Origin: Minisyncoccota bacterium
GTDB lineage: Bacteria > Patescibacteriota > Minisyncoccia > Phycocordibacterales > CAIJYI01
Reading direction: 5' to 3'
DNA length: 64,000 nt
NCBI GenBank assembly: GCA_023229825.1
Contig: JALNYN010000007.1
Coordinates: 2,596-66,595, forward strand
The translations under genes were made by a program, and so were the position numbers. Positions 3,644 through 46,945 of this stretch are shown in pieces. The notes under the pieces were generated by a model. The model worked only from the letters and a program-made list of their open reading frames with translations. It ran no database searches and was not told the origin of the DNA. Every line of letters begins with the position of its first letter. Positions within the stretch are counted from its first letter, which is position 1.

Positions 3644-3717
3644 GCCGCGACCCGGAATCCACGTTTGTCGCGCACACTCTGGATTCCGGGTCGTAGCCCG
3701 GAATGACGGTATGGTGA
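3644..3717. repeat. GTCATTCCGG palindromic repeat element (forward unit plus inverted unit)
   Basis: gtcattccgggccgcgacccggaatccacg ... ggattccgggtcgtagcccggaatgac. Member of a family recurring at nine intergenic loci. Confidence 0.8.
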
Positions 3718-3732
3718 GCGGTCACACTACGA

Positions 3733-4467
3733 TCATTTTTTCGGAAAGAATGCCGATTCTTTTTTGCTCACTTTGATCGATGTTTCAAGAAGCGACTCGA
3801 TCGTTCCCGCATCGTACCAATCGCCTTTCACGACAAAAAACTCCATCATGCCAGCATCAACATATTGATTCACCGCGTCGGTGACTTCGAGCTCTCCTCT
3901 TTTTGACGGCGTTAATTTTTTTATGAATGAGAAGATGCGGCTGTCGAAAAAATACAAACCGGTCTGCGCAAAATCCGACTTCGGTTTTTTCGGCTTCTCC
4001 TCGATCCGTACGATCTTCTTTCCTGTTCTGTCGAAAACTGGGACGCCGTACCGTTCCGGGTCTTTTACTTTTTTCAAAAAAATTCTCGCGCCGTCGGTAA
4101 AGGTTTCCGCCGATCTCGAAAAATCATCTTCAAAAATATTGTCCCCCAGAATAACAGCGACGTTTTCATTGTCCGAAAAATCCTCTGCGCACGAAAGCGC
4201 GTCGGCGATACCGGCATTGTTTTTATCTTGCACGGCAAAAGAAAGTTTCACTCCGCTTTCTTTTCCGGAACCGAGAAAATTGATGAAGTGTCCGACATGT
4301 TCGCGTCCGCAGACGATCATGATCTCGGTGATCCCCGCGCGCCGAAGGGTTTCAATAGGGTAGGAGATCATCGGCCGGCCGTATACCGGCAGGAGATGTT
4401 TGTTGGTGATGAGCGTCAGAGGACGAAGGCGCGTGCCAAGCCCTCCCGCAAGTACGATCCCTTTCAT
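3733..4467 (-). CDS. sugar-phosphate nucleotidyltransferase (glucose-1-phosphate thymidylyltransferase-like, short form)
   Basis: MKGIVLAGGLGTRLRPLT N-terminal pyrophosphorylase motif. Lies adjacent to the dTDP-glucose dehydratase gene. Confidence 0.75.
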   Translation of the reverse strand: MKGIVLAGGLGTRLRPLTLITNKHLLPVYGRPMISYPIETLRRAGITEIMIVCGREHVGHFINFLGSGKESGVKLSFAVQDKNNAGIADALSCAEDFSDNENVAVILGDNIFEDDFSRSAETFTDGARIFLKKVKDPERYGVPVFDRTGKKIVRIEEKPKKPKSDFAQTGLYFFDSRIFSFIKKLTPSKRGELEVTDAVNQYVDAGMMEFFVVKGDWYDAGTIESLLETSIKVSKKESAFFPKK

Positions 4468-4472
4468 AAAAA

Positions 4473-5528
4473 TTATTTTATTTTTTTATTCCGCTTAATT
4501 TTTTGAGTAATGTGCGTATTAAAACCGGAGGTTTTTTTTCGTATCGCGCGGAGCCATTTTTCATTCGACAAGTACCAGCCGATCGTTTCCCGGAACGCTT
4601 TTTCAAAATCATATTCCGGAACCCAGCCGAGTTCCCGGCGAATTTTTGAACTGTCGATCGCGTATCGCCGGTCATGTCCGGGACGATCCGCCACAAATTC
4701 GAGGTGAGAATCATTCCGCTTGAAATACGAAAGGATCATGCGGGCGATAGTCAAGTTATCGAGTTCCGTATCTGCGCCGATACCGTAAGTTTCTCCGGGA
4801 ATTCCTCGAATAAGGCAAAGCTCAAGCGCACGGCAATGATCCATGACATATATCCAGTCGCGCACATTTTTTCCGTCGCCGTATATCGGCAGCTTCTTAT
4901 TCTCCATCATGCGGGTAATACAGAAGGGTATTAATTTTTCCGGATATTGATTCGGCCCGTAATTATTGGAACAGTGCGTGACGACAACCGGAATTTTCCA
5001 TGTCGAGAAATAGGAGCGACACAAAAGATCACCGCCCGCTTTGGTGGCAGCGTAGGGAGTATTCGGAGCAAAAACAGTTGTCTCCTCGAATTTTTGTTTA
5101 GAGCCGAGCGGTAAGCTGCCGAACACTTCATCGGTGCTGACCTCGACATATTTGAGGATTTTTTTTGATTCCTTTACCGATTCCAGAATATTGAATACTC
5201 CTTCCACATTCGTGCGGACGAACTCAAGCGCTTCGCCGTGCACGCTTCGATCGACGTGAGTTTCTGCGGCAAAGTTTATGACAAAGTCAGGTTTGTATTC
5301 GGAAAAAACGGAGCGCACGTGTTTTTGATCTGCAATATCTCCTTTACTGAAAGAATATCGTTTGTCTTTGCTTACGTCTTTTACATTTTCCAAATTTCCG
5401 GAATAGGTGAGTTTATCGAAATTCACCGCTTTCACTTTTGGATATTTTGACAGGATAAGGCGAATAAAATTGGACCCGATAAATCCGGCTCCCCCAAAAA
5501 CAAGGACGGTTTTGCGATTGAGATCCAT
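4473..5528 (-). CDS. rfbB: dTDP-glucose 4,6-dehydratase
   Basis: GGAGFIGSN Rossmann motif and a YAATKAGGD (YxxxK) catalytic motif, about 350 aa. Extended SDR family, RmlB-like. Confidence 0.85.
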   Translation of the reverse strand: MDLNRKTVLVFGGAGFIGSNFIRLILSKYPKVKAVNFDKLTYSGNLENVKDVSKDKRYSFSKGDIADQKHVRSVFSEYKPDFVINFAAETHVDRSVHGEALEFVRTNVEGVFNILESVKESKKILKYVEVSTDEVFGSLPLGSKQKFEETTVFAPNTPYAATKAGGDLLCRSYFSTWKIPVVVTHCSNNYGPNQYPEKLIPFCITRMMENKKLPIYGDGKNVRDWIYVMDHCRALELCLIRGIPGETYGIGADTELDNLTIARMILSYFKRNDSHLEFVADRPGHDRRYAIDSSKIRRELGWVPEYDFEKAFRETIGWYLSNEKWLRAIRKKTSGFNTHITQKIKRNKKIK

Positions 5529-5586
5529 TTTGTTGGTTTAAGATAAACGATAATAGAGTTCTTTCAAAAGTTATGTCATTTATTCT

Positions 5587-5658
5587 GTCATTCCGGACTT
5601 GATCCGGAATCCACGTCCTGTGATATAACGTGGATCCCGGGTCGCTGCCCGGGATGAC
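5587..5658. repeat. GTCATTCCGG palindromic repeat element (forward plus inverted unit)
   Basis: gtcattccggacttgatccggaatccacg tcctgtgatata acgtggatcccgggtcgctgcccgggatgac. Confidence 0.8.
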
Positions 5659-5759
5659 GACGGGCGACTTTTTAAAGAGATCTAATATACGCGTATCATA
5701 TCCCATTATATTTTACAATGCAAAAAAAACGGGAGGGTGTTAAACCCTCCCGCGTGACA

Positions 5760-6953: not shown

Positions 6954-7035
6954 TTTCGCACCTCGCTTCATTGTTTCAAAAAACTATCTCCGACTTATTC
7001 TATACCATAGAATATAAAAAAAAGGAAGCCGACAA

Positions 7036-7064
7036 CTTGACTTTTTTATAAAAATGGTGTATAA
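7036..7064 (+). promoter_or_regulatory. sigma70-like promoter (TTGACT-17 nt-TATAAT) upstream of the sensor kinase gene
   Basis: ttgact tttttataaaaatggtg tataat: perfect -35 and -10 hexamers with 17-nt spacing, about 80 nt upstream of the ATG at 7143. Confidence 0.55.
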
Positions 7065-7142
7065 TGAAGCCGTTTAATTAATACACAAAAAATGGTGTAA
7101 TTGTTCCGATCAAAAGGGCGTTATTTACGCAAGACTTATTTT

Positions 7143-9047: not shown

Positions 9048-9060
9048 TCGATCTCTCATA

Positions 9061-9647: not shown

Positions 9648-9742
9648 AGTACCTTTTATTACCGCCGGCTTATGAAATATTCATGAAAATAAAAAAAGCA
9701 GGCCGTTTGACCTGCTCCAAATTTTTATCATCTATACAATGC

Positions 9743-9772
9743 GTCATCCCGGGCCGCGACCCGGGATCCACG
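9743..9772. repeat. GTCATCCCGGG palindromic repeat unit (single)
   Basis: gtcatcccgggccgcgacccgggatccacg. Confidence 0.75.
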
Positions 9773-9779: not shown

Positions 9780-10334
9780 TCACCTTGCCGCAATTAACAT
9801 GAGATGAAGATCTTCGCAGCATAGACCAACATCTATAAATTCGTAGCGAACGTGCAGTTCTCCGCTGTCGATACATTCTACCAAACGGTGCGCTCTCTTT
9901 ATCTGGCACTGAAAGTATGCAGCCTGTTCCGCAGCAAAATCTCTTTCACTATCGCGCATTTTAGGATTGTTGCTGTATTTTGCTTCAAGATAGCCTTGGG
10001 CCCAATCGCTCATACGGGCAATGTGTGCGGCAAGAAGCGATCTTTTAAAAGAGCGGACAGCTTCTTTGTCGATCGCGTGGTTGATCACTGCTTGATATCG
10101 GCTTGTCGCGTCCTCCGTGCGTTGATCCTCTCCATTGGGCAAACGGATCGGATACGCCATCTCGGAACGGGTCACGGAGACGCGCATCTTGCTTTGGACG
10201 CGTCCGTCTTCTTCAGTGATCCCTCCCGTTGGATAACATTCTTGTTCCACGACAAGAGAATGGTCGAGCAAATGCAGGGTATCTAAATTGCGTTCCAGCT
10301 GCTCCGAAATAGTTTCCGGAATGTTTGTTTTCAT
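9780..10334 (-). CDS. hypothetical protein
   Basis: The ATG at 10334 has AGGTGA upstream. The track ORF extends further to a non-RBS start. No recognised family. Acidic protein with a C-terminal Cys pair. Confidence 0.5.
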   Translation of the reverse strand: MKTNIPETISEQLERNLDTLHLLDHSLVVEQECYPTGGITEEDGRVQSKMRVSVTRSEMAYPIRLPNGEDQRTEDATSRYQAVINHAIDKEAVRSFKRSLLAAHIARMSDWAQGYLEAKYSNNPKMRDSERDFAAEQAAYFQCQIKRAHRLVECIDSGELHVRYEFIDVGLCCEDLHLMLIAAR

Positions 10335-10405
10335 GTTTTCACCTCGTTTTGTTGTTGAAATTCTGTTGCAGACTATATCATAGAAACAATTGTAAGTCAA
10401 GGTAT

Positions 10406-10665
10406 CCGTTAGTATCTCCTCACATCTATCCGTCATTCCAGCCCGCGAGCTGGAATCCACGGCGTAACGACGTGGATTCTGAATCGCACCACAAGAGTAT
10501 TTCCATTTTTATGGTCGCTTCACTCCTTCACCACAAGAGTATTTCCAATTTTATACTCCCTACGGTCGTTAAAATTTAGGTCAAAAATTAGGTCAGTTCA
10601 GAATGACGACGAACGAGTTTTAGCGATTTTTCGGTAAAACATGATGATGGTGTGAGGAATTACGT
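10406..10665. mobile_element. MITE-like intergenic element with TATCTCCTCACA terminal inverted repeats, an internal GTCATTCC unit and two 25-bp direct repeats
   Basis: Left end ccgttagtatctcctcacatc, right end ggtgtgaggaattacgtccg (inverted). Internal gtcattccagcccgcgagctggaatccacg ... cgtggattctgaatcg. Direct repeats caccacaagagtatttcca[t/a]ttttat at 10488-10512 and 10529-10553. Confidence 0.5.
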
Positions 10666-10767
10666 CCGTTATGGTTCAATAGCTTGGAAACGCTCCATCA
10701 TAAAATATCGATTTGCTTTTATTTATGCGCCGGTGTATAAATTAACTATGGTTAACTTATTTACGCG

Positions 10768-11216: not shown

Positions 11217-12047
11217 ATGTTTGCACCATTCGTACTCTCATTTCGGGAGATATTGGAGATAGGGCTGCTCTCTATCCTTATTATTACCTATCTTTCTCGC
11301 GCAGGACTGGGGCATCTGGTAAAGTATGTCTGGCACGGGATCATCGGCGGAGCTGTGATCAGCGTTATTCTGGGAGCGATCGCATGGCAAGTTTTTGGGG
11401 GACTTCCCGAGCCGTATGAAAAATTATTTGAAGCCGTCGCTTCGGTTATTGCCGCGGTTGTTCTTACCGTTGTGTTCTTTTGGCTCGCGAGGCATCGCGG
11501 CGACTTGCTGGAACAAAAGCTTCAAAAGCACGTTGATGCATTCAAAGAAAGGGAGGCCATCAGCGGAATTTTCTTTTTTGCCTTTTTGGTCGTTTTGCGC
11601 GAAGGCCTTGAGATCGTACTTTTTCTTTTTCCGTATCTGATCAAAGATCCGGCAAATACGATCTTGGGATTTTCGGCGGGTACTTTTACGGCGCTTGTTC
11701 TTTCTTTTGCCATGTATCGATACGGCACGCATATCGACGTGAATAAAATATTTTATTATTCAAGCCTCATTATCGTTCTCATCGTGGCCGGCATGCTCGG
11801 ATACGGCGTGCATGAATTCATCGAATTTCTCGCATTCAGAGGAATTGAAATAGGATGGCTCGGACAGTTCGTCTATGATCTCCATATCCCAAGCAGCAGT
11901 ATCTGGTCGCACAAAGGAATTCTCGGCGCTCCTTTCGCGATACTTTTCGGCTATTCCACAAAAATGGAATGGGCTCGTCTTCTGATCCAGATCGCCTATC
12001 TCTCCATTTTCATACCGCTCACCGTGCGGATGTACAGACAGAGATAA
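11217..12047 (+). CDS. FTR1/EfeU-family high-affinity iron permease
   Basis: Two REGLE-type motifs (REILEIG and REGLEIV) in a 7-TM protein, immediately downstream of the DtxR-family regulator. Confidence 0.8.
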   Translation: MFAPFVLSFREILEIGLLSILIITYLSRAGLGHLVKYVWHGIIGGAVISVILGAIAWQVFGGLPEPYEKLFEAVASVIAAVVLTVVFFWLARHRGDLLEQKLQKHVDAFKEREAISGIFFFAFLVVLREGLEIVLFLFPYLIKDPANTILGFSAGTFTALVLSFAMYRYGTHIDVNKIFYYSSLIIVLIVAGMLGYGVHEFIEFLAFRGIEIGWLGQFVYDLHIPSSSIWSHKGILGAPFAILFGYSTKMEWARLLIQIAYLSIFIPLTVRMYRQR

Positions 12048-26300: not shown

Positions 26301-27979
26301 GTCCTTTTCACGTTTTTAGCGATAACGGAACGTATTCGACCGTGCTGAAAGTGACCGATGGAAAAGGAGGCGTCGATATTAAAACGATCAAGATCACTGT
26401 CGGTAATCAATCGCCGAGTGCGGAGATAGTATCTCCTGCGAGCGGAACCCTCTATACTTCCGGAAGTCCGATAAATTTGCGCGGACAGGGAACGGATGCC
26501 GAAGACGGCGCGCTTCCGGCATCGTCGATGCACTGGTCGATCATTCTTCATCACAATATTCACACGCATGTTCTTGAAGAGTTCGATGGCGTATCAGCTC
26601 CGACATTCAATGCTCCTGATCACGGAGGCGAACTCGATGTGTATACCGAAGTGCTCCTCACTGTCACCGACAGCGCAGGACTTATCGGTACGCAAAGCAT
26701 CAATCTGTATCTGAACAACGGCCAGCAAAGCGGCGGCGGAAATCTCATAAAGAACGGATCGATGGAAACCGTCGACCCGAACGCAGCGGAAAGACCGTTG
26801 TATTGGATGAGCGACTTCTACGGCAGTATGAGTCAAAAGTTCACCTATCCGGTCGCCGGACTGGATGGAATGTCCGCCGGAAAAGTTGAGGTGAGTAATT
26901 ATGTCAGCGGTTCGGCAAAATGGTATCACGATCCGGTATTCGTAACGCCGGGCGCGGAATATGATTTTTCCGGATACTATACTTCAACTGCCGATACTGA
27001 TCTTATCGCTGAATTCGGATTCGCGAACGGCACCTATGATTATGTATTTCTCGATAGCATCCCGCCGGCCGCATCTCCGACGCAGATAAAAAAGACGATC
27101 GCGATCCCCGCCAATGTTCAGCGCCTTTCTGTTATTCAAGAATTGGTAGGGAACGGAACCTTGATCACTGATAATTATTCTCTTACATTAAAACAGTCCG
27201 ATCCGGGAGGAGGAGAAATAAATCTGATCTCAAATGGCACCTTTGAAGAGGTTGCCGCGAACGGTGATCCTTCCGGCTGGTTCCGCGGAGCATGGGGAAG
27301 CCAGACAACTTCCTATTTCTATCCGGTCGAAGGAAGGAACGGAGGGAAAGCGGCGAGCGTTGCAATAACATCATATCCGGAGTCCGGGGGAGGCGATTCC
27401 AAATGGTCTTTCGCCGGGATCCCCGTAGAGAGCGGAACTCGGTATACCTATTCCGATTGGTACAAAGCAGGCGACATTTCCGATGTGATCGGAGGATATG
27501 TCATGACGAATGGGCAAGAACACTATTTCGGAGTGGCGAAAGAATTGGTTCCGACCGATACATGGAAAGCCGCCACCGGAAGTTTCTGTCCGCCGGTCGG
27601 AGTATCGACCGTTTCGCTCTACCATATCATCAGCAGCGAAACCACGCTTTCCGTTGATGACGTTTCTCTGACGGCGGGAGGTTCGTGCACCCCCGCGGAG
27701 ACGACCGCTCCAAGCGTTGCTTTTACTGATCCGCTCGAAGGACAAACCGTTTCCGGAGTTGTCACGCTGCAAGCCGCGGCAACCGACGAGTCGGGAGTTT
27801 CCAACTTCTTCTTTGCCGTCGACGGAATTCCGCTCGGAGAAAACTACCCGACCGGACCCTACACTATTCAATGGGACACAACGACCGTCCCGAACGGCAC
27901 GCACACCTTGAAAGCAACCGCAACCGATCCTCACGGAAACAACGACCGCCAGATCATAAGCGTTATTGTGAACAATTAA
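23339..27979 (+). CDS. giant secreted multidomain protein (CBM4/9-like x4, Ig-like x3, GSDH-type beta-propeller, PKD)
   Basis: 1546 aa. N-terminal signal (alternative ATG at 23390). Repeated N(L/G)(V/I)QN..(V/L)E carbohydrate-binding-like modules. Ig-like repeats with NASA(S/T)DNVGV...VDG...SSPY.F..DT...SNGSH.L.A.A.D.AGN. A quinoprotein glucose/sorbosone-dehydrogenase-like propeller (GGLMLPTSMAFSPDGRIFIAEKNG...). A PKD domain (WTFGDGATS...YSTVLKVTDGKGG). Confidence 0.8.
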   Translation: MKNRYLLLNFIKIKITYMNARSKRYALPVLSGVVLSSMLFYLSDDSIGAPINLVQNPSVENGTAVPNSWQKGRWGANTVTYTYPEAGLAGTKSVRVDMTAHTDGDAKWYFSEVAVKPSTKYVFSNKYISNVSTTYTIQYKNTSGAFSYAALGTVPAVPSATQKQFTFTTPANAVAMTVFHHINAVGYLITDDYSLMEETAVADTVSPSTSILAPGNGNEVSGIVAVNASASDNVGVVGVSLLVDGAVIGAEDLSSPYEFSLDTRAFSNGSHSLAARARDAAGNIGTSTPVNVSINNSVSGSNLIQNDSLETAGTNGNPLSWMRGGWGQNTPVFTYPVTGQQGAKAAKLEITSYVSGDAKWYFSEVPVTAGAIYNFKDMYRSTVASSLVAQFAVSGGYQYQFIADLPVAANWTETNYNITVPAGAAKMTVFHLLSSVGTLETDAFSLMSNSADLTAPSVNITSPVPLSTISGTVTVNASSTDNVAVAEVELFVDGAPAGVKDISSPYAFVIDTAAFSNGSHTLLAKAKDTSGNIGSSEGVSVTVSNTPSGTPGFEAQTIAGGLMLPTSMAFSPDGRIFIAEKNGIIRAVKNGALLPNPVITLTDVNTYGDRGLIGIAADPNFIDNGYLYLSYTFENSPGANFSGSKTARIVRVTVIGDEASESSKKILVGSVGGTAGSPSCDNFAVTSDCIPSDSSSHSAGGLRFGPDGKLYASLGEGASFDYVDVRALRSQNLDSLGGKILRINADGTAPSDNPFYNGDPNSNRSKVYAYGMRNTFRFNFRPSDGALFAGDVGWSTWEEINRILPGKNYGWPCKEGNAPTTIAPGGPGYNCQAAGAVDPIYFYQHDQAGAGAVTAGAFPTGSAYPAEYSNSLFFGDFAQNFIRRITLDENNNVLSVREDIIDNPGGPVDLSTGLDGNVYYISIYKGTLERLVYTTGNRNPSAVINASRTSGLAPLSVQFSSEGSSDPNGDALEYRWTFGDGATSNSDSPFHVFSDNGTYSTVLKVTDGKGGVDIKTIKITVGNQSPSAEIVSPASGTLYTSGSPINLRGQGTDAEDGALPASSMHWSIILHHNIHTHVLEEFDGVSAPTFNAPDHGGELDVYTEVLLTVTDSAGLIGTQSINLYLNNGQQSGGGNLIKNGSMETVDPNAAERPLYWMSDFYGSMSQKFTYPVAGLDGMSAGKVEVSNYVSGSAKWYHDPVFVTPGAEYDFSGYYTSTADTDLIAEFGFANGTYDYVFLDSIPPAASPTQIKKTIAIPANVQRLSVIQELVGNGTLITDNYSLTLKQSDPGGGEINLISNGTFEEVAANGDPSGWFRGAWGSQTTSYFYPVEGRNGGKAASVAITSYPESGGGDSKWSFAGIPVESGTRYTYSDWYKAGDISDVIGGYVMTNGQEHYFGVAKELVPTDTWKAATGSFCPPVGVSTVSLYHIISSETTLSVDDVSLTAGGSCTPAETTAPSVAFTDPLEGQTVSGVVTLQAAATDESGVSNFFFAVDGIPLGENYPTGPYTIQWDTTTVPNGTHTLKATATDPHGNNDRQIISVIVNN

Positions 27980-27995
27980 ATAAATCAAACAAAAA

Positions 27996-28028
27996 AGCCA
28001 TCGATCACTTGATGGCTTTTTTGTTATT
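27996..28028 (+). terminator. rho-independent terminator
   Basis: aaaaaa gccatcgatcacttgatggc tttttt. Confidence 0.75.
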
Positions 28029-28114: not shown

Positions 28115-28144
28115 CGTCATACCGGACAGGGATCCGGTATCCAC
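28115..28144. repeat. GTCATACCGG palindromic repeat unit
   Basis: gtcataccggacagggatccggtatccacg. Confidence 0.7.
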
Positions 28145-28172
28145 GTCGTCGCGCGAGGTATCGGAGTTCACC

Positions 28173-30926: not shown

Positions 30927-30968
30927 AATGATAGTAGTATACTAGACGATCGCTCATATATATAGAGG

Positions 30969-31131
30969 GTAAGCGGTATCTCCTCACGCCCCTATCCGTC
31001 ATTCCGGACAGGGCTCCGGAATCCACGGCGTAAACGGAACGACCAACGTGGATCCTGAATCCCGGTTCAGGATGACGACGAATGAATTTTAAAGCTTTTT
31101 TGGTTAAAAAATAAGGGGTGTGAGGAGATAC
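30969..31131. mobile_element. MITE-like element: TATCTCCTCAC terminal inverted repeats enclosing a GTCATTCCGG forward plus inverted unit pair
   Basis: Left end taagcggtatctcctcacgcccc, right end ggggtgtgaggagatacggtaagc (inverted). Internal gtcattccggacagggctccggaatccacg ... cgtggatcctgaatcccggttcaggatgac. Confidence 0.6.
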
Positions 31132-31143
31132 GGTAAGCTTTTA

Positions 31144-37211: not shown

Positions 37212-37772
37212 TCAAACCTTGAGCGAGCCGCGGAAGCCCCTGCCGGCGTAATATGAATCCGCGCCGTTGTGATACAAGAAAACATGATCGTAGCGCCGAT
37301 CGCAAAAAACGGCACCGCCGAGTTTCCGAATTTCATCGGGTGTTTTCACCCAGCTTGATGTCTTCGTATCGAAATTTCCCAGTTTCTGCAATTCTCGATA
37401 TTCTTCCTCCGTTAAAAGCTCAACACCCATGTCTTCCGCCATACCGACAGCGCTATTTTTTGGTTTATTTTCTTTCCTGTCTTTGAGCGCCTTACGATCA
37501 TAACAAAAACTTCTGCGACCGCTTGGGCTTTCCGCGGAGCAATCATAAAAAATATATTCACCCGTCTTTTTATCGTGACCGACCACATCCGGTTCGCCGC
37601 CGGTCTGTTCCATGAGATACAGCGATCGGAGCTTGTCCGGACGGGCGAGAAGTTTTGCATTGATCTTGTCCCAATCGAGTTCCTTATGGCGAAACGCATT
37701 TTCTTCAAACCGCATCTTCAGTGTAAGAAGCAGCTCATCAATATTTTTTTTGGATAAATTTAATTTTGTCAT
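37212..37772 (-). CDS. DUF4256 family protein
   Basis: ATG at 37772 gives MTKLNLSKKNIDELLLTLKMRFEEN. Family assignment from memory of the conserved N-terminus. Confidence 0.5.
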   Translation of the reverse strand: MTKLNLSKKNIDELLLTLKMRFEENAFRHKELDWDKINAKLLARPDKLRSLYLMEQTGGEPDVVGHDKKTGEYIFYDCSAESPSGRRSFCYDRKALKDRKENKPKNSAVGMAEDMGVELLTEEEYRELQKLGNFDTKTSSWVKTPDEIRKLGGAVFCDRRYDHVFLYHNGADSYYAGRGFRGSLKV

Positions 37773-37784
37773 GGTTTTATAAAC

Positions 37785-37827
37785 GTCATTCCGGCCCGCG
37801 ATCCGCCAGCTGGCGGAGGAATCCACG
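37785..37827. repeat. GTCATTCCGG palindromic repeat unit (long-loop variant)
   Basis: gtcattccggcccgcgatccgccagctggcggaggaatccacg. Confidence 0.7.
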
Positions 37828-37982: not shown

Positions 37983-40900
37983 ATGAAAATAAAAATTTCT
38001 CTGCTTACACTCGCATTCTTTTTTGCCCCTTCACTCGTCTTCGCCTCCACTCCAGTCTGGGGTACTATAAATTCCGATACCGTTTGGACAGCAGAAAGCG
38101 GTCCGTACCTTGTAGACTTCTCGATAGTCCCGGAAGGAATAACGCTTACCGTGGAAGAAGGAACCGTAGTTAAATTTACCGGACAGCGTTCAATGCTTGA
38201 AGTTTCCGGAAACCTTGTCGTTTCGGGAACCGAATTGAGTCCTGTCGTTTTTACCTCCATAAATGACGATTCTGTCGGCGGCGATACCGGCACGGGGGCG
38301 AATGAGTGGGGAAACATTCTGATAAAAAACGGAGGAGTGGCAACGATTGATCATGCGGAAATTCGCCACGGCGGATGGACCGGATGGCTTTCTTCCGCCG
38401 CTCCGTCCAACATTTGGAACAACGGGGGAAACCTCACCCTAACAAACTCGAAGATCAGCAATGCATGGACAGGCATAACGCATTCAGCTGGAAATACCGC
38501 GCTCACGGAAAACATATTTACGGAAAACAACACCGGTATTTCTGTCAGTGGAACGGGAAGGGTCCATTTCGATCATAATAATTTTTTTAATAATACCGGC
38601 AATGTGGCTTGGTTCGACCTCACTAACGGCGTTTCCCTTACCCATTCGGATAATACCGCATGGGGAGGAACTCCGGGATTGGTTCTCGCAGGCGAGGCCG
38701 GCGCAGATTATGTTTTTGAGAAAGACGGAGCGCCATACGTCATCGATCACTTCACGGTTCCCGCGGGCAAAACCGTCACCGCACGTCCCGGAACCGCATT
38801 CAAATTATTGAACCCAGTCAGCGAAATATTTATTTCCGGAACTTGGAACACTGAAGGAACCTCGGATGATCCTGTCTATTTCACTTCCATTAAAGATGAT
38901 ACCGTTCTGGGAGATACCAACGGCGACGCCGACAGCTCTCAACCCGCAAACGATGATTGGGAAGGAATCTTTGTTTTGGAAGGCGGTGAAGCGAATTTTG
39001 ATCATGCCATACTGCGCTACGGCGGATACAGTGGCTGGCTGCAAAGTACCATGTTTTCGAATATTTCGAACAACGGCGGCATCCTCAACATTTCCAATTC
39101 TGAGATATCACGCAGCTGGTATGGTATTCATCATGAAAAGGGAACGACAAATATCGACTCGAGTACTATTTCGCAAAGCAGTATCGGAATTTATGCAGGA
39201 GGAACGGGATCGATAACCATCAACAACAATACTTTTTTCAATAATGACCGTCCGGCATTGCTTGATCTTTCAAGTGTTATTCTAACCAATGCGAACAACA
39301 CGGCGCACGGTACAGGAAAAAAAGGTTTGGAACTCGGGGGTGCGATCTCTGTCGATCAAACACTTACAAAAGATCTGCCATATTTGATCGACCATCTCAC
39401 CATTCCAGCAGGAAGAACACTAACAGTACGATCCGGATCAGTATTCAAATTTTTGAACAACGTAAGCGAGATGTTTGTCTCGGGAAAAATGAATGTCGAA
39501 GGAAGCGGAAATGAACCGGTCTATTTCACTTCCGTCAAAGATGATACCGTTCTCGGCGATACCAATGGCGATGCCGATGCCTCTCAACCCACAAACGATG
39601 ATTGGGAGGGGATCCTCGTTTTATCCGGCGGTGAAGCGAACTTCGATCATTCCGTCCTTCGCTACGGCGGATACAGCGGTTGGCTGCAAAGCTATATGGC
39701 TTCGAATATTTCAAATGACGGGGGAATTCTCAATATTTCTCACTCCGACTTCTCGAACAGCTGGTTTGGCATTCACCACGAAAAGGGAACCACCACCATT
39801 TCGCAAAGTTCGATACATGATAATCCGGGTTATGGAGTATACAACGGTTCCGCTCAAACCTTAAACGCCGAAAACAATTATTGGGGATCCGTAAACGGCC
39901 CGACTCATCCAAGCAACCCGCTCGGGACAGGAGACAAGGTGACTGACCGCGTTGATTTCATGCCGTATTTGGGTTTTGATCCGACGGTTCCGGTATCAGT
40001 AGCACTTACCAATGGCGGCGAAACGGAAAATGATGATTTGCAGGACGGAAAAGGAGTGGCGGATAAAACTCAGTTTACGTTTTCTGTTGTTGCATCGGAA
40101 AATCTAGTGGACATAAAACTTGTAACCGATTCATCGGACGTCGGCATAAATCCGGGTCAATTCTTTTTGTACGCTTCAGGAACCGAAGGTGTTTACTCTC
40201 GCGCTCTTACCTTTCCGAAAGGACACTATCGTTACCATTTTGAAGCGGTAGACGGAAACGGCGGCGTGTACCGTTACCCGGAGACAGAGGAGTTGAAATT
40301 CACGACAGGGTATTCAAATGTCGCGTTTTTGCCCGGGATCGAAGCAAGTAGACTTTATGGCGGAACCGGAGAACAGCTTTGGGAACCGGAATATTTTGGA
40401 AATCCATCCGTTCTCGCTCTCGATGAAAACGGTAGCTCGACCCGTTCCGATATTTACACGAAAGATGTCATTGATAATGCCTACCTCGCGTTTAAAGGAA
40501 ATATTTATTCCTCGTTTATTTCTTCAATGAACGATCTGAAAAGCAATGGAACGATTGCGGATTGGGAACCGTTGCCGTACGACTGGCGTCTTTCTTTTGA
40601 CGACATTTTGAATAACGGTGCTGAACTCTCGGATGGCAGGATTTATTACACAGGGAGTCTCGCCGCGACTGGTACGCCATATATCATTCAGGAAATCCGA
40701 CGGCTTGCCGCGACCTCCGACACAGGAAAAGTTACTATCATCTCTCATTCCATGGGCGGACTTGTCGCAAAGAATCTCACGGTTAAACTCGGAACGGAAG
40801 AATCTTCAAAACTTATCGATCAAATGATATTTATCGATTCTCCCCAAACAGGAACGCCTCAAACCATCGGCGTTTTGCTTCATGGTTTTGATCAAGGACT

Positions 40901-42488
40901 TCCGGCCGCATGGCTTCCCGCTGCCCTTACTGCCGAAGAAACACGCGATTTGTCGCAAAACATGCCTTCGATCTACAACCTGCTTCCTTCCTCAAAATAT
41001 TTCGCCTACACGGATGATCCGGTGGTAACATTTGACGACTCGCCACTGCTTGCTTCGTGGAGAACAAAATATGGAGCGCAAATTCATTCAAGTTTTTATC
41101 TTTCCAAATTTTTAACGGACCCGGCGAGAGAACCGCTTTTAACGAAAGAAGCGCTCAACGACCCGCCGATCGTAAATCCATTGTTGCTTGAAAAAGCCAA
41201 AACGCTACATACTGTTCTCGATTCTTGGATTCCTCCGGTAAATGTGCGAATATCTGAGATCATCGGATGGGGAGAAATGACCGCAAAGACGATCGAGTAC
41301 AAACAGGGAACGAAGGGTGTGTGTATTGAATGGAACGAAAACAACACTTGCAAAAAAGGGGAGCAAAGACCCGCTCTTGAATATGATGTTGCGGAAACAA
41401 TGGACGGCGACGGGACGGTGGTTGCTCCGAGCGCGCTCTATACGACGGGGTCGGAGAGGTGGTGGGTGGATTTGAAAAAGTATGATACACCTCTTACTCT
41501 TCAAAGAAAACATGCCGATATACTCGAAGTTCCCACCCTGCGAACTCACATTCAAAACGTCATTACTCGCACAGAAGGTTCTGTGTCACTTGATTTTATA
41601 AGCAGAAACAAACCGATAAACACAGAAGATCCAAAAACCCGCCTTCGCTTCACACTTCATTCGCCGCTGTCGATTTTAGTTTGTGATAACCTCGGAAATT
41701 GCACCGATCGAACGGAACAAAACATCCTCGAAAGCGATTACCGCGAATATGGTTCGCTGAAAATTATCGATGTTCCGAATACGTCGGATCTTCACCTTGA
41801 GCTGAAAGGAATTGCGCCTGGATCGTTTACTCTCAACATGCAAGAATTTATGGGCGATGCGGAAATCGCGAGTACGACCTTCGCCGGCATACCATCGCTC
41901 GCCGAAACAATCGCAACGCTCAATATTCCTGCAAACGGTGGAATTGCAGGTTCATCTCCGCTTTTGGTTGACGAAAACGGCGACGGAACGATTGACCTTA
42001 CACTTGCGCCAAAACTCGGTGAAGTGATTTTGCCTGATTTTACGTATCCAGAAGCGAAAATCTCCGTTGATCCAATAACAAAAGATCTGAAAATCGAAGG
42101 AATCGATGAAAATCCGACAACGGTTTCAAAAAACGGAAGCAATTATACGATTACCGATTCGTCGGGAAACACGACAACTCTCTTCTTTCAAAAAACCTTC
42201 ACCGCAAAGCGTCTCACTTTTGCAAAATTGACAGGTGTTCAATACGGAACAGATCCGAAAATATCACTCCCATCGTCTTCATTTCTGTATCTTTGGAATC
42301 CTGCTCTTATCAGTCAAACCATCTCGGTGAAAAAAGATTTCGTTATTGAAGCGATGTACAACAAGAAAAAAGACGAAACGACCGTTTGGATAAAAAAGGA
42401 AGGAGAGAAAACACAAAAACAGATATTCACGGGATTGAAGGTTGTAGAATTGACTGTGGACAAAGGGGTGGTGGGATATGAGATGTAG
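37983..42488 (+). CDS. giant secreted protein: three tandem right-handed parallel beta-helix modules plus an alpha/beta-hydrolase (lipase/esterase-like, GHSMGG) domain
   Basis: 1501 aa. Signal peptide MKIKISLLTLAFFFAPSLVFA. Three ~215-aa modules with NxxGxLxIxNSxISxSWxGIHH beta-helix repeats. VTIISHSMGGLVAKNL nucleophile elbow at about aa 920. Confidence 0.8.
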   Translation: MKIKISLLTLAFFFAPSLVFASTPVWGTINSDTVWTAESGPYLVDFSIVPEGITLTVEEGTVVKFTGQRSMLEVSGNLVVSGTELSPVVFTSINDDSVGGDTGTGANEWGNILIKNGGVATIDHAEIRHGGWTGWLSSAAPSNIWNNGGNLTLTNSKISNAWTGITHSAGNTALTENIFTENNTGISVSGTGRVHFDHNNFFNNTGNVAWFDLTNGVSLTHSDNTAWGGTPGLVLAGEAGADYVFEKDGAPYVIDHFTVPAGKTVTARPGTAFKLLNPVSEIFISGTWNTEGTSDDPVYFTSIKDDTVLGDTNGDADSSQPANDDWEGIFVLEGGEANFDHAILRYGGYSGWLQSTMFSNISNNGGILNISNSEISRSWYGIHHEKGTTNIDSSTISQSSIGIYAGGTGSITINNNTFFNNDRPALLDLSSVILTNANNTAHGTGKKGLELGGAISVDQTLTKDLPYLIDHLTIPAGRTLTVRSGSVFKFLNNVSEMFVSGKMNVEGSGNEPVYFTSVKDDTVLGDTNGDADASQPTNDDWEGILVLSGGEANFDHSVLRYGGYSGWLQSYMASNISNDGGILNISHSDFSNSWFGIHHEKGTTTISQSSIHDNPGYGVYNGSAQTLNAENNYWGSVNGPTHPSNPLGTGDKVTDRVDFMPYLGFDPTVPVSVALTNGGETENDDLQDGKGVADKTQFTFSVVASENLVDIKLVTDSSDVGINPGQFFLYASGTEGVYSRALTFPKGHYRYHFEAVDGNGGVYRYPETEELKFTTGYSNVAFLPGIEASRLYGGTGEQLWEPEYFGNPSVLALDENGSSTRSDIYTKDVIDNAYLAFKGNIYSSFISSMNDLKSNGTIADWEPLPYDWRLSFDDILNNGAELSDGRIYYTGSLAATGTPYIIQEIRRLAATSDTGKVTIISHSMGGLVAKNLTVKLGTEESSKLIDQMIFIDSPQTGTPQTIGVLLHGFDQGLPAAWLPAALTAEETRDLSQNMPSIYNLLPSSKYFAYTDDPVVTFDDSPLLASWRTKYGAQIHSSFYLSKFLTDPAREPLLTKEALNDPPIVNPLLLEKAKTLHTVLDSWIPPVNVRISEIIGWGEMTAKTIEYKQGTKGVCIEWNENNTCKKGEQRPALEYDVAETMDGDGTVVAPSALYTTGSERWWVDLKKYDTPLTLQRKHADILEVPTLRTHIQNVITRTEGSVSLDFISRNKPINTEDPKTRLRFTLHSPLSILVCDNLGNCTDRTEQNILESDYREYGSLKIIDVPNTSDLHLELKGIAPGSFTLNMQEFMGDAEIASTTFAGIPSLAETIATLNIPANGGIAGSSPLLVDENGDGTIDLTLAPKLGEVILPDFTYPEAKISVDPITKDLKIEGIDENPTTVSKNGSNYTITDSSGNTTTLFFQKTFTAKRLTFAKLTGVQYGTDPKISLPSSSFLYLWNPALISQTISVKKDFVIEAMYNKKKDETTVWIKKEGEKTQKQIFTGLKVVELTVDKGVVGYEM
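38740..39810 (+). repeat. intragenic tandem duplication (645-bp period, about 85% nt identity) within the beta-helix protein gene
   Basis: ctatttcacttcc[a/g]t[t/c]aaagatgataccgttct[g/c]gg[a/c]gatacca... at 38876 and again at 39521. A third, more diverged copy lies at about 38110-38530. Confidence 0.75.
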
Positions 42489-42940: not shown

Positions 42941-43028
42941 TCTTGCTAAAAAAATCCACAAAAAGCGAGCCGATGGGTTCGTTTTTTTTGTTTGACGAAA
43001 ACGGAAATGTGAATCCTGATTACTACTT

Positions 43029-43493
43029 TTAACTATTTTTTTCTTCGTTCTTTTTCATTCTTGCCTTTATTAATTTCTTTATAAGGCCAACAGGAAGTTT
43101 TTTGTCGAGTGAAAAATGAACGGCGGATTTTGTGGTCGTGTAGCCGATCAGATCCTTCCCATGCTCCGCTACGACCGGAGGGGGAAGATATAATCCGATA
43201 TGATGTTTCGCGAGCGCAAACCACGCCAGCCGGCCGTGATACTTATAATACGGCATCTGATAGCTGAAACTTTCTTCTGCGCGAGGCGCGGCCTGTCGTA
43301 TAATTTTTCTCATCTCGGAGAGCTTCGGCTGCAATTCTTTCGGCGCATGTGAGATATACCGATCCACATCTTTCGATGAAGCCGAATTCTTTATTCGTCC
43401 GGGCCAGCAGATCGGACAAGGTCCGGGTCCCGTGTAAGAATGCCCGCGGCTGCAGATCTTTATTGCATTGTCTTTTTTCATAGCAATTACCAT
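43029..43493 (-). CDS. DUF1801 (YdhG-like) domain protein with N-terminal Cys cluster
   Basis: YISHAPKELQPKLSEMRKIIRQAAPRAEE...HIGLYL matches DUF1801. Alternative ATG at 43481. Confidence 0.5.
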   Translation of the reverse strand: MVIAMKKDNAIKICSRGHSYTGPGPCPICWPGRIKNSASSKDVDRYISHAPKELQPKLSEMRKIIRQAAPRAEESFSYQMPYYKYHGRLAWFALAKHHIGLYLPPPVVAEHGKDLIGYTTTKSAVHFSLDKKLPVGLIKKLIKARMKKNEEKNS

Positions 43494-43544
43494 TCTACCA
43501 CTTTGTAAATGAGCAATCTATCAAAATGATGAAGAGGTAAAAAG

Positions 43545-43760
43545 TGTCGTTACGTCCGGCGGTACAACGTGGATCCCGGGTCCATCCTTCGCCAAGGCTA
43601 CGGCAAGGCACGGCGTTGCCCGGGATGACGACAGACAATTTTAAAGTCTTTTATCGTCATTCCGGACTTGATCCGGAATCCACGTCTGTCAGCTCACGTG
43701 GATCCCGGGTCCATCCTTCGCCAAGGCTACGGCAAGGCACGGCGTTGCCCGGGATGACGA
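43545..43760. repeat. cluster of GTCATTCCGG-family units including two identical 62-bp long-variant copies
   Basis: acgtggatcccgggtccatccttcgccaaggctacggcaaggcacggcgttgcccgggatgac at 43567-43628 and 43696-43757, with gtcattccggacttgatccggaatccacg between them. The ORF-track ORF 43544-43807 is a translation of these repeats. Confidence 0.8.
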
Positions 43761-43775
43761 ATAGGTACGGAACAA

Positions 43776-43800
43776 AGAAAAAGCCCGACTTTGCAGCCGG
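43776..43800 (-). terminator. rho-independent terminator after pntB
   Basis: Minus-strand gcccggctgcaaagtcgggc followed by ttttt. Confidence 0.65.
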
Positions 43801-43817
43801 GCCATAATTGAGGATCC

Positions 43818-45209
43818 TTATCCTCTTAAAGTTTTCAATACTTCCTGCATGGTTGCATTGGCATCGCCAAAGAGCATTCTGGTATTTTCCAATACGAACA
43901 GGGGATTACCCACGCCCGCATAGCCTGTCGCCATGCTGCGTTTCAGAACGATCGTGGTTCCGCCTTTCCAACATTCGAGCACCGGCATTCCGGCGATCGG
44001 GCTGTTTGGGTCATTGAGAGCCGAAGGGTTCACGATGTCGTTCGCTCCGATGACGATCGAAACATCGACATCGCCCCAATCATCATTGATCTCGTCCATC
44101 TCGTACACGATGTCGTACGGCACTTTCGCTTCCGCGAGCAGCACGTTCATATGTCCGGGCATCCTTCCCGCAACCGGGTGAATGCCGAATCCGACTTTTT
44201 TGCCTTTATCGCGCAAAAGTTTCGTGATCTCGTAGACCGTATGCTGAGCTTGCGCCACCGCCATTCCGTAGCCGGGAATGATCATGATGCTTTTTGCTTC
44301 GAGCAGCAATTGCGCGGTGTCTCCGGCAGAAACGCTTTGCACTTCGCCTTCGATCTCCGCCGCTTTTCCTCCGGTCGAACCGAAGCCCCCGGCTATTACG
44401 CTGATAAAGTGGCGGTTCATCGCACGGCACATGATGTAACTCAATATCGCGCCGCTTGATCCGACCAATGCACCGGTAACGATCAGAAGATCATTGCCGA
44501 GCATAAAACCGGTCGCTGCCGCCGCCCATCCCGAATAGCTGTTAAGCATCGAGATAACCACCGGCATATCCGCGCCGCCTATCGCCATGACCATATGCAC
44601 GCCGAGTACGAGCGCGATCGCGGTCATAATAAGCAGAACAACAAATCCTCCGTCGCTCTCAGCTTGTTCCAAAAACAACCAACCGAGGAAAACGGTCAGA
44701 ACGACCATTCCCAAATTCAGCCAATGACGAGCGGGAAGCGTTAAAGGTTTTCCGCCGATCCGTTCGCTCAGTTTTCCGAACGCAATGACCGAACCGGAAA
44801 AAGTAACGGCACCGATAAAAATGCCCAAATAAATTTCCAGTTCGTGGATCGTTTTTTCCGCGCCCGAAAGGCTCGCGGAATTATCCATGAAAGTGGCATA
44901 GGCCACGAGCACGGCTGCGAGACCGACCAAGCTGTGCATGATCGCGACGAGTTCCGGCATTTGCGTCATTTCGACCTTCAATGCGGCTCTTGTTCCGATC
45001 AATCCGCCGACAGCAAGCGCGGCGATCAAAACGCCATACGAGCTGACGGAAGCGCTGAACGCGGTCGCCGTAACAGCGATCGCCATGCCGATCATTCCGT
45101 AATAATTTCCTTTGCGCGCCGTTTCCTGACTGCTTAAACCGCTCAGGCTTAAGATGAAAAGAATGAAGGCGACAATGTATGATATGACAACTAAATTTTG
45201 CGACATCAT
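43818..45209 (-). CDS. pntB: NAD(P) transhydrogenase subunit beta
   Basis: 463 aa. N-terminal TM bundle plus C-terminal dIII NADP(H)-binding domain. AGGAG RBS. Confidence 0.9.
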
Positions 45210-45218
45210 CTTCTCCTC

Positions 45219-46778
45219 TTATTTCTTGAACATTTGGAGCATGCGGCGAGTGACCAAAAAGCCACCGAAAATATTGATCGCCGCTAAGAATATCCCCGCA
45301 CCCGCAAGAACGGCGACGGGAAGACTTAGACTCGATACCTGTATGATCGCACCGATGACAATAATACTGCTGATGGCGTTCGTCACGCTCATGAGCGGCG
45401 TATGCAGCGAATGCGAAACATTCCAGATAACCTGATAGCCCACAAAGCACGCAAGCACGAACACCGTAAAGTGCGTCATGAATGATGCCGGAGCATACAG
45501 CCCCAGTCCGTACATCGCAAGACCTGCGACCGCGTACGGCAGTAATGTTTTCAATACTTTTCGGAAGACAGAAGGTTTCTTCTCAGGTTTTTCCTCGGAA
45601 GGTTTCTTCTCGTCCGGTTTTGGAGTGACGCTGATCGTCGGAGGGGGAGGCGGCCAGGTGATCTTTCCTTCTTTTATAACCGTGGTTCCTCGTATGACCT
45701 CATCTTCCATATTGACGTTGATCTCTCCTTTTTTCTCGGGAGTGAGCTCGGTCAATAAATGCCGCAAGTTGGTCGCATACAATTGGCTTGATTGATTCGC
45801 GAGACGGCTCGGCAAGTTGCTGTAACCGATGATCGTTACGCCGTGTTTTACGACGACGGCATCTTTCTCGGTCAATTCGCAATTTCCGCCCTGTTCCGCG
45901 GCTAAGTCCACGACTATGCTGCCTTGGCGCATGGTGCGCACCATTTCTTCGGTGATGAGCTTCGGTGCCGGTTTTCCCGGAATAAGCGCAGTAGTGATGA
46001 TGATATCAACCTCTTTCGCTTGCTTGGCGAAAAGCGCCATCTCAGCTTCAATGAATTCTTTGGACATGGTTTTTGCATAACCGCCCGTGCCCGAACCTTC
46101 TTCTTTGAAGTCGAGCATCAAGAATTCCGCGTCCATGCTTTCTATCTGTTCTTTCACTTCCGGTCTCGTGTCGAATGATCTGACGATCGCGCCCATGCTT
46201 TTTGCCGCGCCGATCGCAGCCAACCCGGCCACGCCCGCGCCGATCACCAAAACTTTTGCCGGCGGAATTTTTCCCGCGGCGGTAATTTGCCCGGTAAAAA
46301 ATCGTCCGAAATGCTGCGCCGCTTCGACGACCGCACGATAACCGGCAATGTTCGCCATCGAGCTCAGAGCATCAAGCTTCTGCGCTCTCGAAATACGCGG
46401 AACGCTGTCCATCGCAAGTACCGTAACATGTTTCGCCGAAAGTTTCGCCATCAGGTCCGGATTTTGCGCCGGCCATATAAAGCTGATCAAACAGCGGCCG
46501 TCTACTAAAAGTTCCGTTTCGTCGAGCCCGAGTTCCGGATGATGTTCCGGCGCTCTGACTTTCATGACGATATCCGATCCGCTCCACAGAGCTTTCGCAT
46601 CGGCCACGATCGCAACGCCCGCTTTTTCATAATCCGCATCGGAAATATCCGCGCCCGTTCCGGCACCGCTCTCAAGCAATACCGAAAAGCCAAGCTTGAT
46701 CAGCTGCCCAGCCGATTCCGGCGTAAGTGCCACGCGTTTTTCATCAATATGAACCTCTCTAGGTACGCCAATTTTCAT
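45219..46778 (-). CDS. pntA: NAD(P) transhydrogenase subunit alpha (dI plus membrane dII part)
   Basis: ATG at 46778 with GGAGG gives MKIGVPREVHIDEKRVALTPE. Ala-dehydrogenase-like dI, Pro/Lys-rich linker, 4 C-terminal TM segments. Confidence 0.9.
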   Translation of the reverse strand: MKIGVPREVHIDEKRVALTPESAGQLIKLGFSVLLESGAGTGADISDADYEKAGVAIVADAKALWSGSDIVMKVRAPEHHPELGLDETELLVDGRCLISFIWPAQNPDLMAKLSAKHVTVLAMDSVPRISRAQKLDALSSMANIAGYRAVVEAAQHFGRFFTGQITAAGKIPPAKVLVIGAGVAGLAAIGAAKSMGAIVRSFDTRPEVKEQIESMDAEFLMLDFKEEGSGTGGYAKTMSKEFIEAEMALFAKQAKEVDIIITTALIPGKPAPKLITEEMVRTMRQGSIVVDLAAEQGGNCELTEKDAVVVKHGVTIIGYSNLPSRLANQSSQLYATNLRHLLTELTPEKKGEINVNMEDEVIRGTTVIKEGKITWPPPPPTISVTPKPDEKKPSEEKPEKKPSVFRKVLKTLLPYAVAGLAMYGLGLYAPASFMTHFTVFVLACFVGYQVIWNVSHSLHTPLMSVTNAISSIIVIGAIIQVSSLSLPVAVLAGAGIFLAAINIFGGFLVTRRMLQMFKK

Positions 46779-46804
46779 GTACAACCTCCAATAAAATTTT
46801 GAAT

Positions 46805-46945
46805 TCGTCGTCATTCGTCGTCACATTTTGTCGTCATTCGTCGTCATTTTGTCGTCATTCTGAACTAGATTCAGAATCCACGTCCGTAGTCGTTCGCCGT
46901 CGTTCGTCGTCATTCCGGACTCGATCCGGAATCCACGTTCGTCGT
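46805..46945. repeat. degenerate cluster of TCGTCGTCATTC tandem motifs plus two GTCATTC...GAATCCACG units
   Basis: tcgtcgtcattcgtcgtcacattttgtcgtcattcgtcgtcattttgtcgtcattctgaactagattcagaatccacg ... gtcattccggactcgatccggaatccacg. Confidence 0.7.

Follow-up and report, generated by a model that had tools for sequence, protein, structure and literature searches.

A 64-kb stretch of DNA (positions 2,596 to 66,595 of contig JALNYN010000007.1; hereafter the window) carries palindromic repeats of about 30 nt between its genes at nine loci, which raises the question of what kind of element they are and which enzyme acts on them. Our answer is that the repeats are oriented hairpin units of the class of repetitive extragenic palindromes (REPs) tagged with CGTC, also described as NTS-like or Ssn-related motifs (SRMs), an assignment in which we have high confidence. 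The best explanation overall joins such units to a partner nuclease of the Ssn type, and to this we give a probability of roughly 0.65.

An earlier note on this DNA had described a palindromic, REP-like intergenic family at nine loci. Our results confirm this description: we recovered 16 oriented units at exactly those loci, all between 3.6 and 47 kb of the window, and both halves of the motif are enriched. The first half, GTCATTCCGG, has 20 matches in the window with at most one mismatch (5.0 expected), and the second, CCGGAATCCACG, has 21 with at most two mismatches (6.6 expected); for neither did any of 100 dinucleotide shuffles reach as high a count. The inventory rests on a search that fixed just the outer tags (GTCAT … ATCCACG) and required inner ends that can pair, which yields 13 strict units. 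Three more lie beyond this search, namely 3678-3708 (minus strand, tail CCAGA), the degenerate unit 37784-37827 and the loop-split unit 10471-10608 (minus strand). The positions given in the earlier note were right within 1 nt, save that 3644 should read 3634. A covariance model trained on 37 units was also applied, with filters off, to the whole window. The 12 canonical units score 45-55 bits (each E < 1e-10), by construction, as they were in the training set of the model; the variant at 37784-37827 scores 16 bits (E = 0.03). No further canonical unit was found by this model in the window, none within well-supported genes and none past position 46,937. The units are clearly oriented, since the opposite strand of each scores at most 12 bits. 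An Rfam scan of the window returned no family covering the units, its sole match being a group I intron.

The layout of a unit is (C/T)GTC, ATYCCGGN, a loop of 5-6 nt, N'CCGGRAT and CCA(CG), for 29-31 nt overall. The 5' tag is CGTC in 15 of the 16 units and TGTC in the remaining one (5586), while CCA directly follows the stem in every unit, as CCACG in 15 and as CCAGA in one. Loops are of 5 nt (CTTGA type) or 6 nt (CCGCGA or CAGGGA types), and three units carry inserts of 38 to ~110 nt. The stem is maintained through strictly Watson-Crick compensatory changes. Indeed, in an alignment of 37 units (A2; 12 from the window and 25 from other organisms) 99.7% of the cells of the 8-bp stem pair, five of the eight pairs are changed on both sides, and one-sided (wobble-type) changes are found in 0 of 296 cells; none of 500 shuffles reaches these values, and no slid register comes near them. 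The first two stem pairs are A-T and T-A in all 37 units, and the GTC tag and CCA tail are invariant; in the window, all 16 units have GTC ahead of the stem and C behind it. The CCGG positions of the 25 outside units were set by the search pattern, and for those columns the unbiased evidence comes from the window units. These show six versions of the stem (ATTCCGG, ATCCCGG, ATTCCAG, ATACCGG, ATCCTGA and ATTCTGA), each with its matching 3' half.

Ten units make up five head-to-head dimers with their tags outward (3633/3708, 5586/5659, 10431/10608, 30997/31077 and 43655/43759), in agreement with the proposal that units are often found in inverted pairs. As single-stranded DNA, the homodimer at 3628-3713 is predicted to fold into one long hairpin (-35.4 kcal/mol, z = -8.7), and heterodimers, in which different stems are combined, into three-way structures. 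One dimer type is present at both 5586-5659 and 43655-43759, with related spacers, and the 29-nt core of the unit at 5586-5615 is identical to that of the unit at 43656; a second type is present at both 10431-10608 and 30997-31077. Since dimers of one type are thus shared by separate loci, the dimer looks like the unit of copying, and the family appears to have spread within the lineage as dimers.

The assignment to a class follows from these features, since the tag, the AT-first 8-bp stem, the CCA tail, the dimers and the intergenic position match the published definition of the CGTC-tagged REP superfamily, with its families CGTC-1 to CGTC-4 (Di Nocera, De Gregorio and Rocco 2013, PMC3733652). 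In that definition a CGTC or TGTC head (variant CCTC) is followed by an 8-9-bp stem starting with AT, a loop of 4-5 nt, with exceptions in loop length noted, and a CCA tail. Such REPs occur mainly as head-to-head dimers, with heterodimers frequent, in intergenic regions mostly flanked by convergent or unidirectional open reading frames (ORFs) and near 3' ends. They have neither a dedicated transposase nor an association with REP-associated tyrosine transposases (RAYTs), which accompany GTAG REPs or their own inverted repeats (PMC3733652). The window units share with them the unpaired CGTC/TGTC head and unpaired CCA tail, the AT-first 8-bp stem, the short loop, the head-to-head dimers including heterodimers, the intergenic position, often near 3' ends, and the lack of an associated RAYT. 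Furthermore, the dimers of H. neapolitanus, set in a larger palindromic frame, are a precedent for the embedded dimers found here (PMC3733652). In contrast with that survey, the window holds two variants with long loop inserts and two dimers embedded in elements with terminal inverted repeats (TIRs) and flanking direct repeats, which are not described there, and its host, a Methylococcales-like gammaproteobacterium, is absent from the 2013 list. Neisseria dRS3 is family CGTC-1 of the same superfamily (PMC3733652). Like dRS3 and the Neisseria intergenic mosaic elements (NIME), the units here cluster in intergenic mosaics, as at 43545-43760; unlike them, they are accompanied by no RS elements and show no association with Nf prophages or IS110-type integrases, and their density is far below that of the arrays of pathogenic Neisseria. 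The family is therefore a lineage-specific set within a known and widespread class, neither an orphan nor a new kind of element, and its novelty is limited to the host lineage, the long-loop variants, the carrier resembling a miniature inverted-repeat transposable element (MITE) and the local density (16 units in the first 47 kb).

As to the host, the genes of the window are those of an ordinary chromosome (glmS, rml genes, narGHJI, pntAB, sensor kinases) and its PntB shares 83% identity with Methylobacter proteins; judged by its genes, the source is a Methylobacter-like gammaproteobacterium. A copy of the contig at NCBI (GCA_041666085.1, JBAYHP010000024.1, here L122) is labelled Candidatus Paceibacterota despite ~83% identity to Methylobacter genes, a label that is probably the result of mis-binning.

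The link to a nuclease comes from work on Neisseria, in which the target NTS is an oriented dRS3, CGTCATTCCCGCG…CGCGGGAATC (Chenal et al. 2025, PMC11893778). SsnA, a single-domain GIY-YIG nuclease of 94 aa, binds and cuts NTS only as single-stranded DNA, a few nt 5' of the hairpin, and Ssn is inactive on RNA. Binding depends critically on the C that directly follows the palindrome, and cleavage on the 3 nt that precede it, while the identity of the loop is dispensable and loop extensions are tolerated. SRMs are found near 71% of ssn homologues, and Ssn is encoded in 81% of the genomes with more than 200 SRMs (all PMC11893778). The positions critical for Ssn, that is, the 3 nt before the palindrome and the C after it, are kept in all 16 window units, and the 38-nt and ~110-nt loop inserts fit the published tolerance of loop extension. 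Both systems hence have in common an oriented hairpin with GTC before and C after the palindrome, a tolerant loop and a wide phylogenetic spread; in fetched loci of other genomes, moreover, ssn-like genes are flanked by the same hairpins. They differ in their stems, which are CCGG-based here and CCCGCG in Neisseria, and a role of the window units as Ssn targets is proposed by analogy.

We searched a collection of species-representative genomes with the pattern GTCATYCCGGN{6,9}CCGGRATCCACG and obtained at least 120 stretches, labelled as Alpha-, Beta- and Gammaproteobacteria, Chloroflexota, Actinomycetota, Gemmatimonadota, Omnitrophota and several candidate-phyla groups, the last of which call for caution given the mislabelled copy of the window contig. 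Inverted pairs were again frequent among the matches listed. Loci of 8 kb were fetched for 120 stretches, and in four of these unselected loci (L014, L020, L051 and L085) a PF01541 GIY-YIG gene of ~95-110 aa lies within a few hundred bases of SRMs. A metagenome scan with a lineage-specific flank and the head pattern CTTTAAAAN{4,9}GTCGTCATYCYGR gave 27 matches, mostly due to chance and none from the organism of the window. A hidden Markov model made from 120 database homologues detected Ssn-like genes in four of these 27 metagenome loci, three of them distinct (L140, L142 and L149 with the same sequence, and L147), adjoining SRMs. The published association between ssn and SRMs is thus independently reproduced at seven distinct loci, all beside SRMs. 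Most database Ssn-like GIY-YIG proteins, among the best 120 matches, are encoded on very short contigs (0.5-2 kb), which would be expected of a gene lying between repeats at which assemblies break.

On the model of the Neisseria and Wolbachia systems, the hairpin would be bound by the small single-domain GIY-YIG nuclease Ssn (cd10448) whenever the tagged strand is single-stranded, for instance in the course of replication, repair or DNA uptake. The enzyme would be encoded elsewhere in the source genome and would nick a few nt 5' of the tag; nicking would then modulate the recombination of motif-bearing DNA and possibly seed new copies. By analogy with those systems, we lean slightly towards a cognate Ssn acting on the window copies in the source organism.

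Several points weigh against reading the window units as CGTC REPs with an Ssn-type partner. The SRM string as printed, HGTCWYN(0-2)YYVSBRHN(0-5)WNVSBRGN(0-2)RNCYNB, matches two of the 16 units (5629 and 9743, ATCCCGGG variants), and in each of the other 14 one or two degenerate positions close to the loop or to the 3' stem do not fit; the string is a hand-made search heuristic and not a definition, and our inventory was made without it. Loops in the window are of 5-6 nt, against 4-5 nt in the family definitions (PMC3733652). Contrary to the loci of the Ssn systems, no ssn gene lies within the 64 kb: neither the window nor contigs L121-L124, which overlap or extend it, yielded an Ssn-like or GIY-YIG ORF, and the 3.3 kb added by contig extension hold neither units nor ssn. 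No Ssn labelled Methylobacter is present among the best 120 of at least 7999 profile matches to four Ssn-like queries, a search that is uninformative for this lineage because the family is huge and only the top 120 were covered. About 19% of SRM-rich genomes have no detectable Ssn (PMC11893778). Finally, the unit at 9742-9772 sits between a stop codon and a terminator and is probably transcribed.

This last point also speaks for a function at the RNA level, in which hairpins transcribed at the 3' ends of operons would serve as terminators, mRNA stabilisers or RNase targets. All units lie between Pfam-supported ORFs, and the nine loci comprise two convergent, four unidirectional and three divergent regions. 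Six loci (the convergent and unidirectional ones) are therefore downstream of at least one gene, and PMC3733652 favours an RNA role for REPs generally. Yet the SRM hairpins lack a T-run, and four loci lie past a canonical terminator that has a T-tract. Indeed, at these four loci intrinsic terminators (GC stem plus T-run; 3584-3611, 5753-5729, 27988-28025 and 43803-43782) are found between the gene end and the repeats, which are hence not the terminators, and we rejected SRMs as operon terminators on these grounds. Moreover, at three loci the genes on either side start next to the repeats and point away from them, units can face either way with respect to their neighbouring genes, the absence of one-sided, G-U type cells from the stem (0/296) is more typical of a constraint at the DNA level, and Ssn does not act on RNA (PMC11893778). 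We consider a role at the RNA level unlikely, although it survives better than the other alternatives.

Two of the nine loci bear on a different alternative, in which the family would be an ordinary one of MITEs moved in trans by a DDE transposase, the small hairpins being internal structures or decay products. The earlier note had proposed that two copies are embedded in larger elements bounded by TIRs, and this was verified. The TIRs (GTATCTCCTCAC...GTGAGGAGATAC) match at 10 of 12 positions in one element (10412-10423/10652-10663) and at 12 of 12 in the other (30976-30987/31120-31131). To this we add flanking direct repeats of 7 bp, TCCGTTA at 10405-10411 and 10665-10671 for the first element and GGTAAGC at 30968-30974 and 31132-31138 for the second; a flanking direct repeat of at least 7 nt is found for 0.11% of random window intervals (null probability 1.1e-3 per element). 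The internal dimers and the AT-rich module are homologous between both composites, which are intergenic and hold no ORF. They thus share with bacterial MITEs the 12-bp TIRs, the 7-bp flanking direct repeats, the small size, the lack of an ORF, the intergenic position and the presence in two copies. This likeness applies to two of the nine loci only: the other 12 units, plain units and dimers at seven loci, have neither TIRs nor flanking direct repeats, which fits a single-strand or recombinational origin and not cut-and-paste transposition. Furthermore, the part conserved across phyla is the internal 30-nt hairpin, whereas the TIRs and the AT-rich module are found in this lineage only. No matching transposase for the composites was found within the window, and the composite element had no counterpart among plasmids by BLAST. 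As an account of the whole family, MITE transposition is hence quite improbable. From their sequence, the composites look like a MITE-like element that already held a dimer when it transposed, and at least one dimer type would thereby be carried passively within a MITE with TIRs and target-site duplications.

It is very improbable that the units are REPIN-like elements (REP doublets forming hairpins) mobilized by a RAYT. The window does contain a Y1_Tnp (RAYT-like) gene at 51993-52664, and hairpin dimers devoid of target-site duplications are what would be expected from single-strand transposition of the IS200/IS605 type. The window units resemble GTAG REPs and REPINs in being short hairpins that probably replicate as dimers, have no target-site duplication and are presumed to involve a single-strand DNA mechanism. 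But their tag is CGTC and not GTAG, CGTC REPs have no RAYT association in PMC3733652, and the inverted repeats that bracket this RAYT are its own, 51 nt long (AATAAAGGGGACAG..., AATAAAGGGGACAGTCACCATTG…; 51938-52712) and unrelated to the units. A RAYT with its own inverted repeats agrees with PMC3733652, where RAYTs pair with GTAG REPs or with repeats of their own, and not with CGTC REPs. A third, solo copy of the RAYT inverted repeat lies at 48396-48445, 3.5 kb upstream, and the region in between has a low GC content, of 37-39%. The annotated ORFs of the window yielded no further transposase. The claim that the family is not tied to the local RAYT, the only transposase there, hence stands. 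What the earlier note missed is that the class has a documented partner, the GIY-YIG nuclease Ssn (PMC11893778), which is not a transposase.

Neisseria dRS3 serves Nf filamentous prophages and their IS110/Piv-like integrases as an insertion site. The units belong to the same superfamily as dRS3 and could by the same token be attachment or target sites for site-specific insertion, yet no IS110/Piv-like gene or prophage abuts any window unit and 2.9 million viral contigs gave 10 matches only, so that we give this alternative very little credit. That the units are conserved protein-coding fragments is effectively refuted: ORF 43544-43807 (87 codons) does span a cluster, with the 129-bp duplication described below in frame, but it matches no Pfam family, a set of 5.8 billion proteins contains neither a homologue nor the ORF itself as a called gene, its interval was left empty by the gene callers in L121 and L122, and units lie on both strands and in different frames. 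The concern of the earlier note that this ORF might be a real gene is therefore dispelled. Certain other ORF calls extend over repeats solely through upstream alternative starts, and the repeats explain both the spurious ORF and the start-codon extensions at the 5' ends of 9780-10460 and 37212-37826.

The reading of the units as CGTC REPs with an Ssn-type partner leaves the matter of their present mobility. The density of the repeats had been taken to suggest active proliferation, and for this we found no direct evidence. Tandem copy number excepted, three further assemblies from the same population show 100% identity to the window and no insertion polymorphism, and units at different loci are diverged. 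The only identical copies are those of a local tandem duplication of 129 bp, a hairpin dimer at 43567-43760. As had been noticed, the long-insert copies at 43567 and 43696 are identical (65 nt, 100%, with a 129-nt period). The duplication is present in the window and in L122, while the ENA contig L121 has a single copy (11447-11511); the missing period may reflect either copy-number polymorphism or assembly collapse. Relatives of the genus Methylobacter carry related units, sparsely in the DNA examined, and none in 46 kb around their pntAB. The comparison with repeat-free orthologous loci that the earlier note had called for was carried out at pntAB of these relatives, whose proteins have 83% amino-acid identity: gene order departs from that of the window to the left and to the right, no SRMs are present and no precise empty site could be read.

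Other repeats are found within and beside the units. The loop insert of the unit at 10471-10608, of ~110 nt, includes two tandem copies of 42 bp. The 38-nt insert (43580-43610) contains an 18-mer, CCTTCGCCAAGGCTACGG, that is also found exactly beside an SRM at 2064-2081 of L029, a contig labelled Marinimicrobia, and judging by this match the insert is possibly in its own right a second small repeat of wide distribution. The unit at 46853 is immediately preceded, at 46803-46860, by about five tandem head-only fragments (ATTCGTCGTC / GTCGTCAT) with a period of 10 or 21; this array could be due to slippage, or to repeated repair where Ssn-type enzymes would cut.

Table. Repeat units and composite elements of the window, with positions, strand and context.
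Feature	Position	Strand	Remarks
SRM unit CGTCATTCCGGG-CCGCGA-CCCGGAATCCACG	3633..3663	+	left half of head-to-head homodimer; model 52 bits
SRM unit, tail CCAGA	3678..3708	-	right half of homodimer; 45.9 bits; between convergent glmS and rmlA-like genes, past glmS terminator 3584-3611
SRM unit, TGTC tag, stem ATTCCGGA, loop CTTGA	5586..5615	+	left half of heterodimer; 54.1 bits
SRM unit, ATCCCGGG stem variant	5629..5659	-	right half of heterodimer; 49.9 bits; three-way fold (predicted); past DUF2333-gene terminator 5753-5729
Single SRM unit	9742..9772	+	50.6 bits; between stop codon (9780) of minus-strand gene and its terminator (9718-9695)
Composite MITE-like element, 252 bp	10412..10663	.	12-bp TIR, forward SRM, loop-split reverse SRM, AT-rich module, second TIR; upstream of Fe-repressor gene
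SRM unit, stem variant ATTCCAGC/GCTGGAAT	10431..10461	+	within 10412..10663 composite; 47.6 bits
SRM unit, stem variant ATTCTGAA/TTCAGAAT	10471..10608	-	loop holds ~110-nt insertion; within 10412..10663 composite
Single SRM unit, stem variant ATACCGGA/TCCGGTAT	28115..28145	+	48.4 bits; between convergent genes, past terminator 27988-28025
Composite MITE-like element, 156 bp	30976..31131	.	perfect 12-bp TIR (GTATCTCCTCAC); between rsgA and MFS gene
SRM unit	30997..31027	+	within 30976..31131 composite; 48.3 bits
SRM unit, stem variant ATCCTGAA/TTCAGGAT	31047..31077	-	within 30976..31131 composite; 44.7 bits
Degenerate/variant unit	37784..37827	+	tags and outer 5 bp of stem retained; inner part is 16-nt palindrome TCCGCCAGCTGGCGGA; 15.9 bits, E = 0.027; divergent intergenic region
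Long-loop SRM unit, copy 1 of 129-bp tandem duplication	43568..43630	-	62-nt core, 38-nt loop insert; downstream of pntB terminator 43803-43782
SRM unit	43655..43684	+	heterodimer with long-loop unit 43697-43759; 55.2 bits
Long-loop SRM unit, copy 2, same sequence as copy 1	43697..43759	-	from tag-anchored search and repeat comparison
Single SRM unit, stem variant ATTCTGAA/TTCAGAAT	46853..46882	+	47.7 bits; preceded by tandem head fragments (TCGTCGTCAT, 46803-46860)
Single SRM unit	46908..46937	+	54.1 bits; upstream of pntA, divergent intergenic region

The remainder of the window has features of its own. The right-hand 17 kb (47000-64000) have a lower GC content (37-46%) and carry the RAYT, a BRO-N gene and an intron-containing tRNA, with no SRM unit against 16 in the first 47 kb; this part may be acquired DNA. 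On the minus strand at 61733-62393, a tRNA gene is split in its anticodon loop by a group I intron of 588 nt (tRNA-Thr(TGT) according to ARAGORN with introns allowed). The intron gives an Rfam match to RF00028 of 89.5 bits at 61779-62093, and an ORF in its 5' part has an HNH-like CxxC…HH motif; a standard tRNA scan of the window missed the intron-split gene and reported no tRNA. A stretch of ~240 bp at 57274-57512, upstream of the gene at 57530-58816, has partial duplicates (81-89% identity) at 60950-60993 and 61566-61704, beside the intron-bearing tRNA, and one duplicated segment is an inverted partial copy of the 3' end of the tRNA, GAATCCTACC…CGCGGAGCAA. In the left part, 23339-27979 and 37983-42488 encode very large proteins of secreted type (1546 and 1501 aa), with Big_7/PKD/GSDH and beta-helix/LCAT domains, and both genes have internal DNA repeats of 100-300 nt.

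One further idea would bring the nuclease and the composites together. In this methanotroph lineage, CGTC/SRM dimers could be doubly mobile, copied in a transposition-like way in dependence on Ssn nicking with no target-site duplication and, in addition, hitch-hiking in a MITE of the DDE type that has TIRs and target-site duplications. We regard this as improbable, if less so than the MITE and RAYT alternatives above. If true, Ssn would be the "transposase" of CGTC REPs, as RAYT is for GTAG REPs, and a MITE could bring Ssn target sites into new genomes, which would help to explain why the 30-nt motif is identical across phyla. The idea of Ssn as a domesticated insertion-sequence function was already raised as a hypothesis in PMC11893778, where the route of carriage by a MITE is not raised.

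The dense "orphan" palindromes of an uncultured Methylobacter-like genome are in this way assigned to the CGTC REP/SRM class, which is mainly of value for annotation. Should a cognate Ssn be characterized, the inventory of units provides its possible substrates, and the two composites offer a small, testable lead on how CGTC hairpins are moved. The class assignment itself predicts that a single-strand nuclease of the Ssn type would be encoded elsewhere in the source genome.

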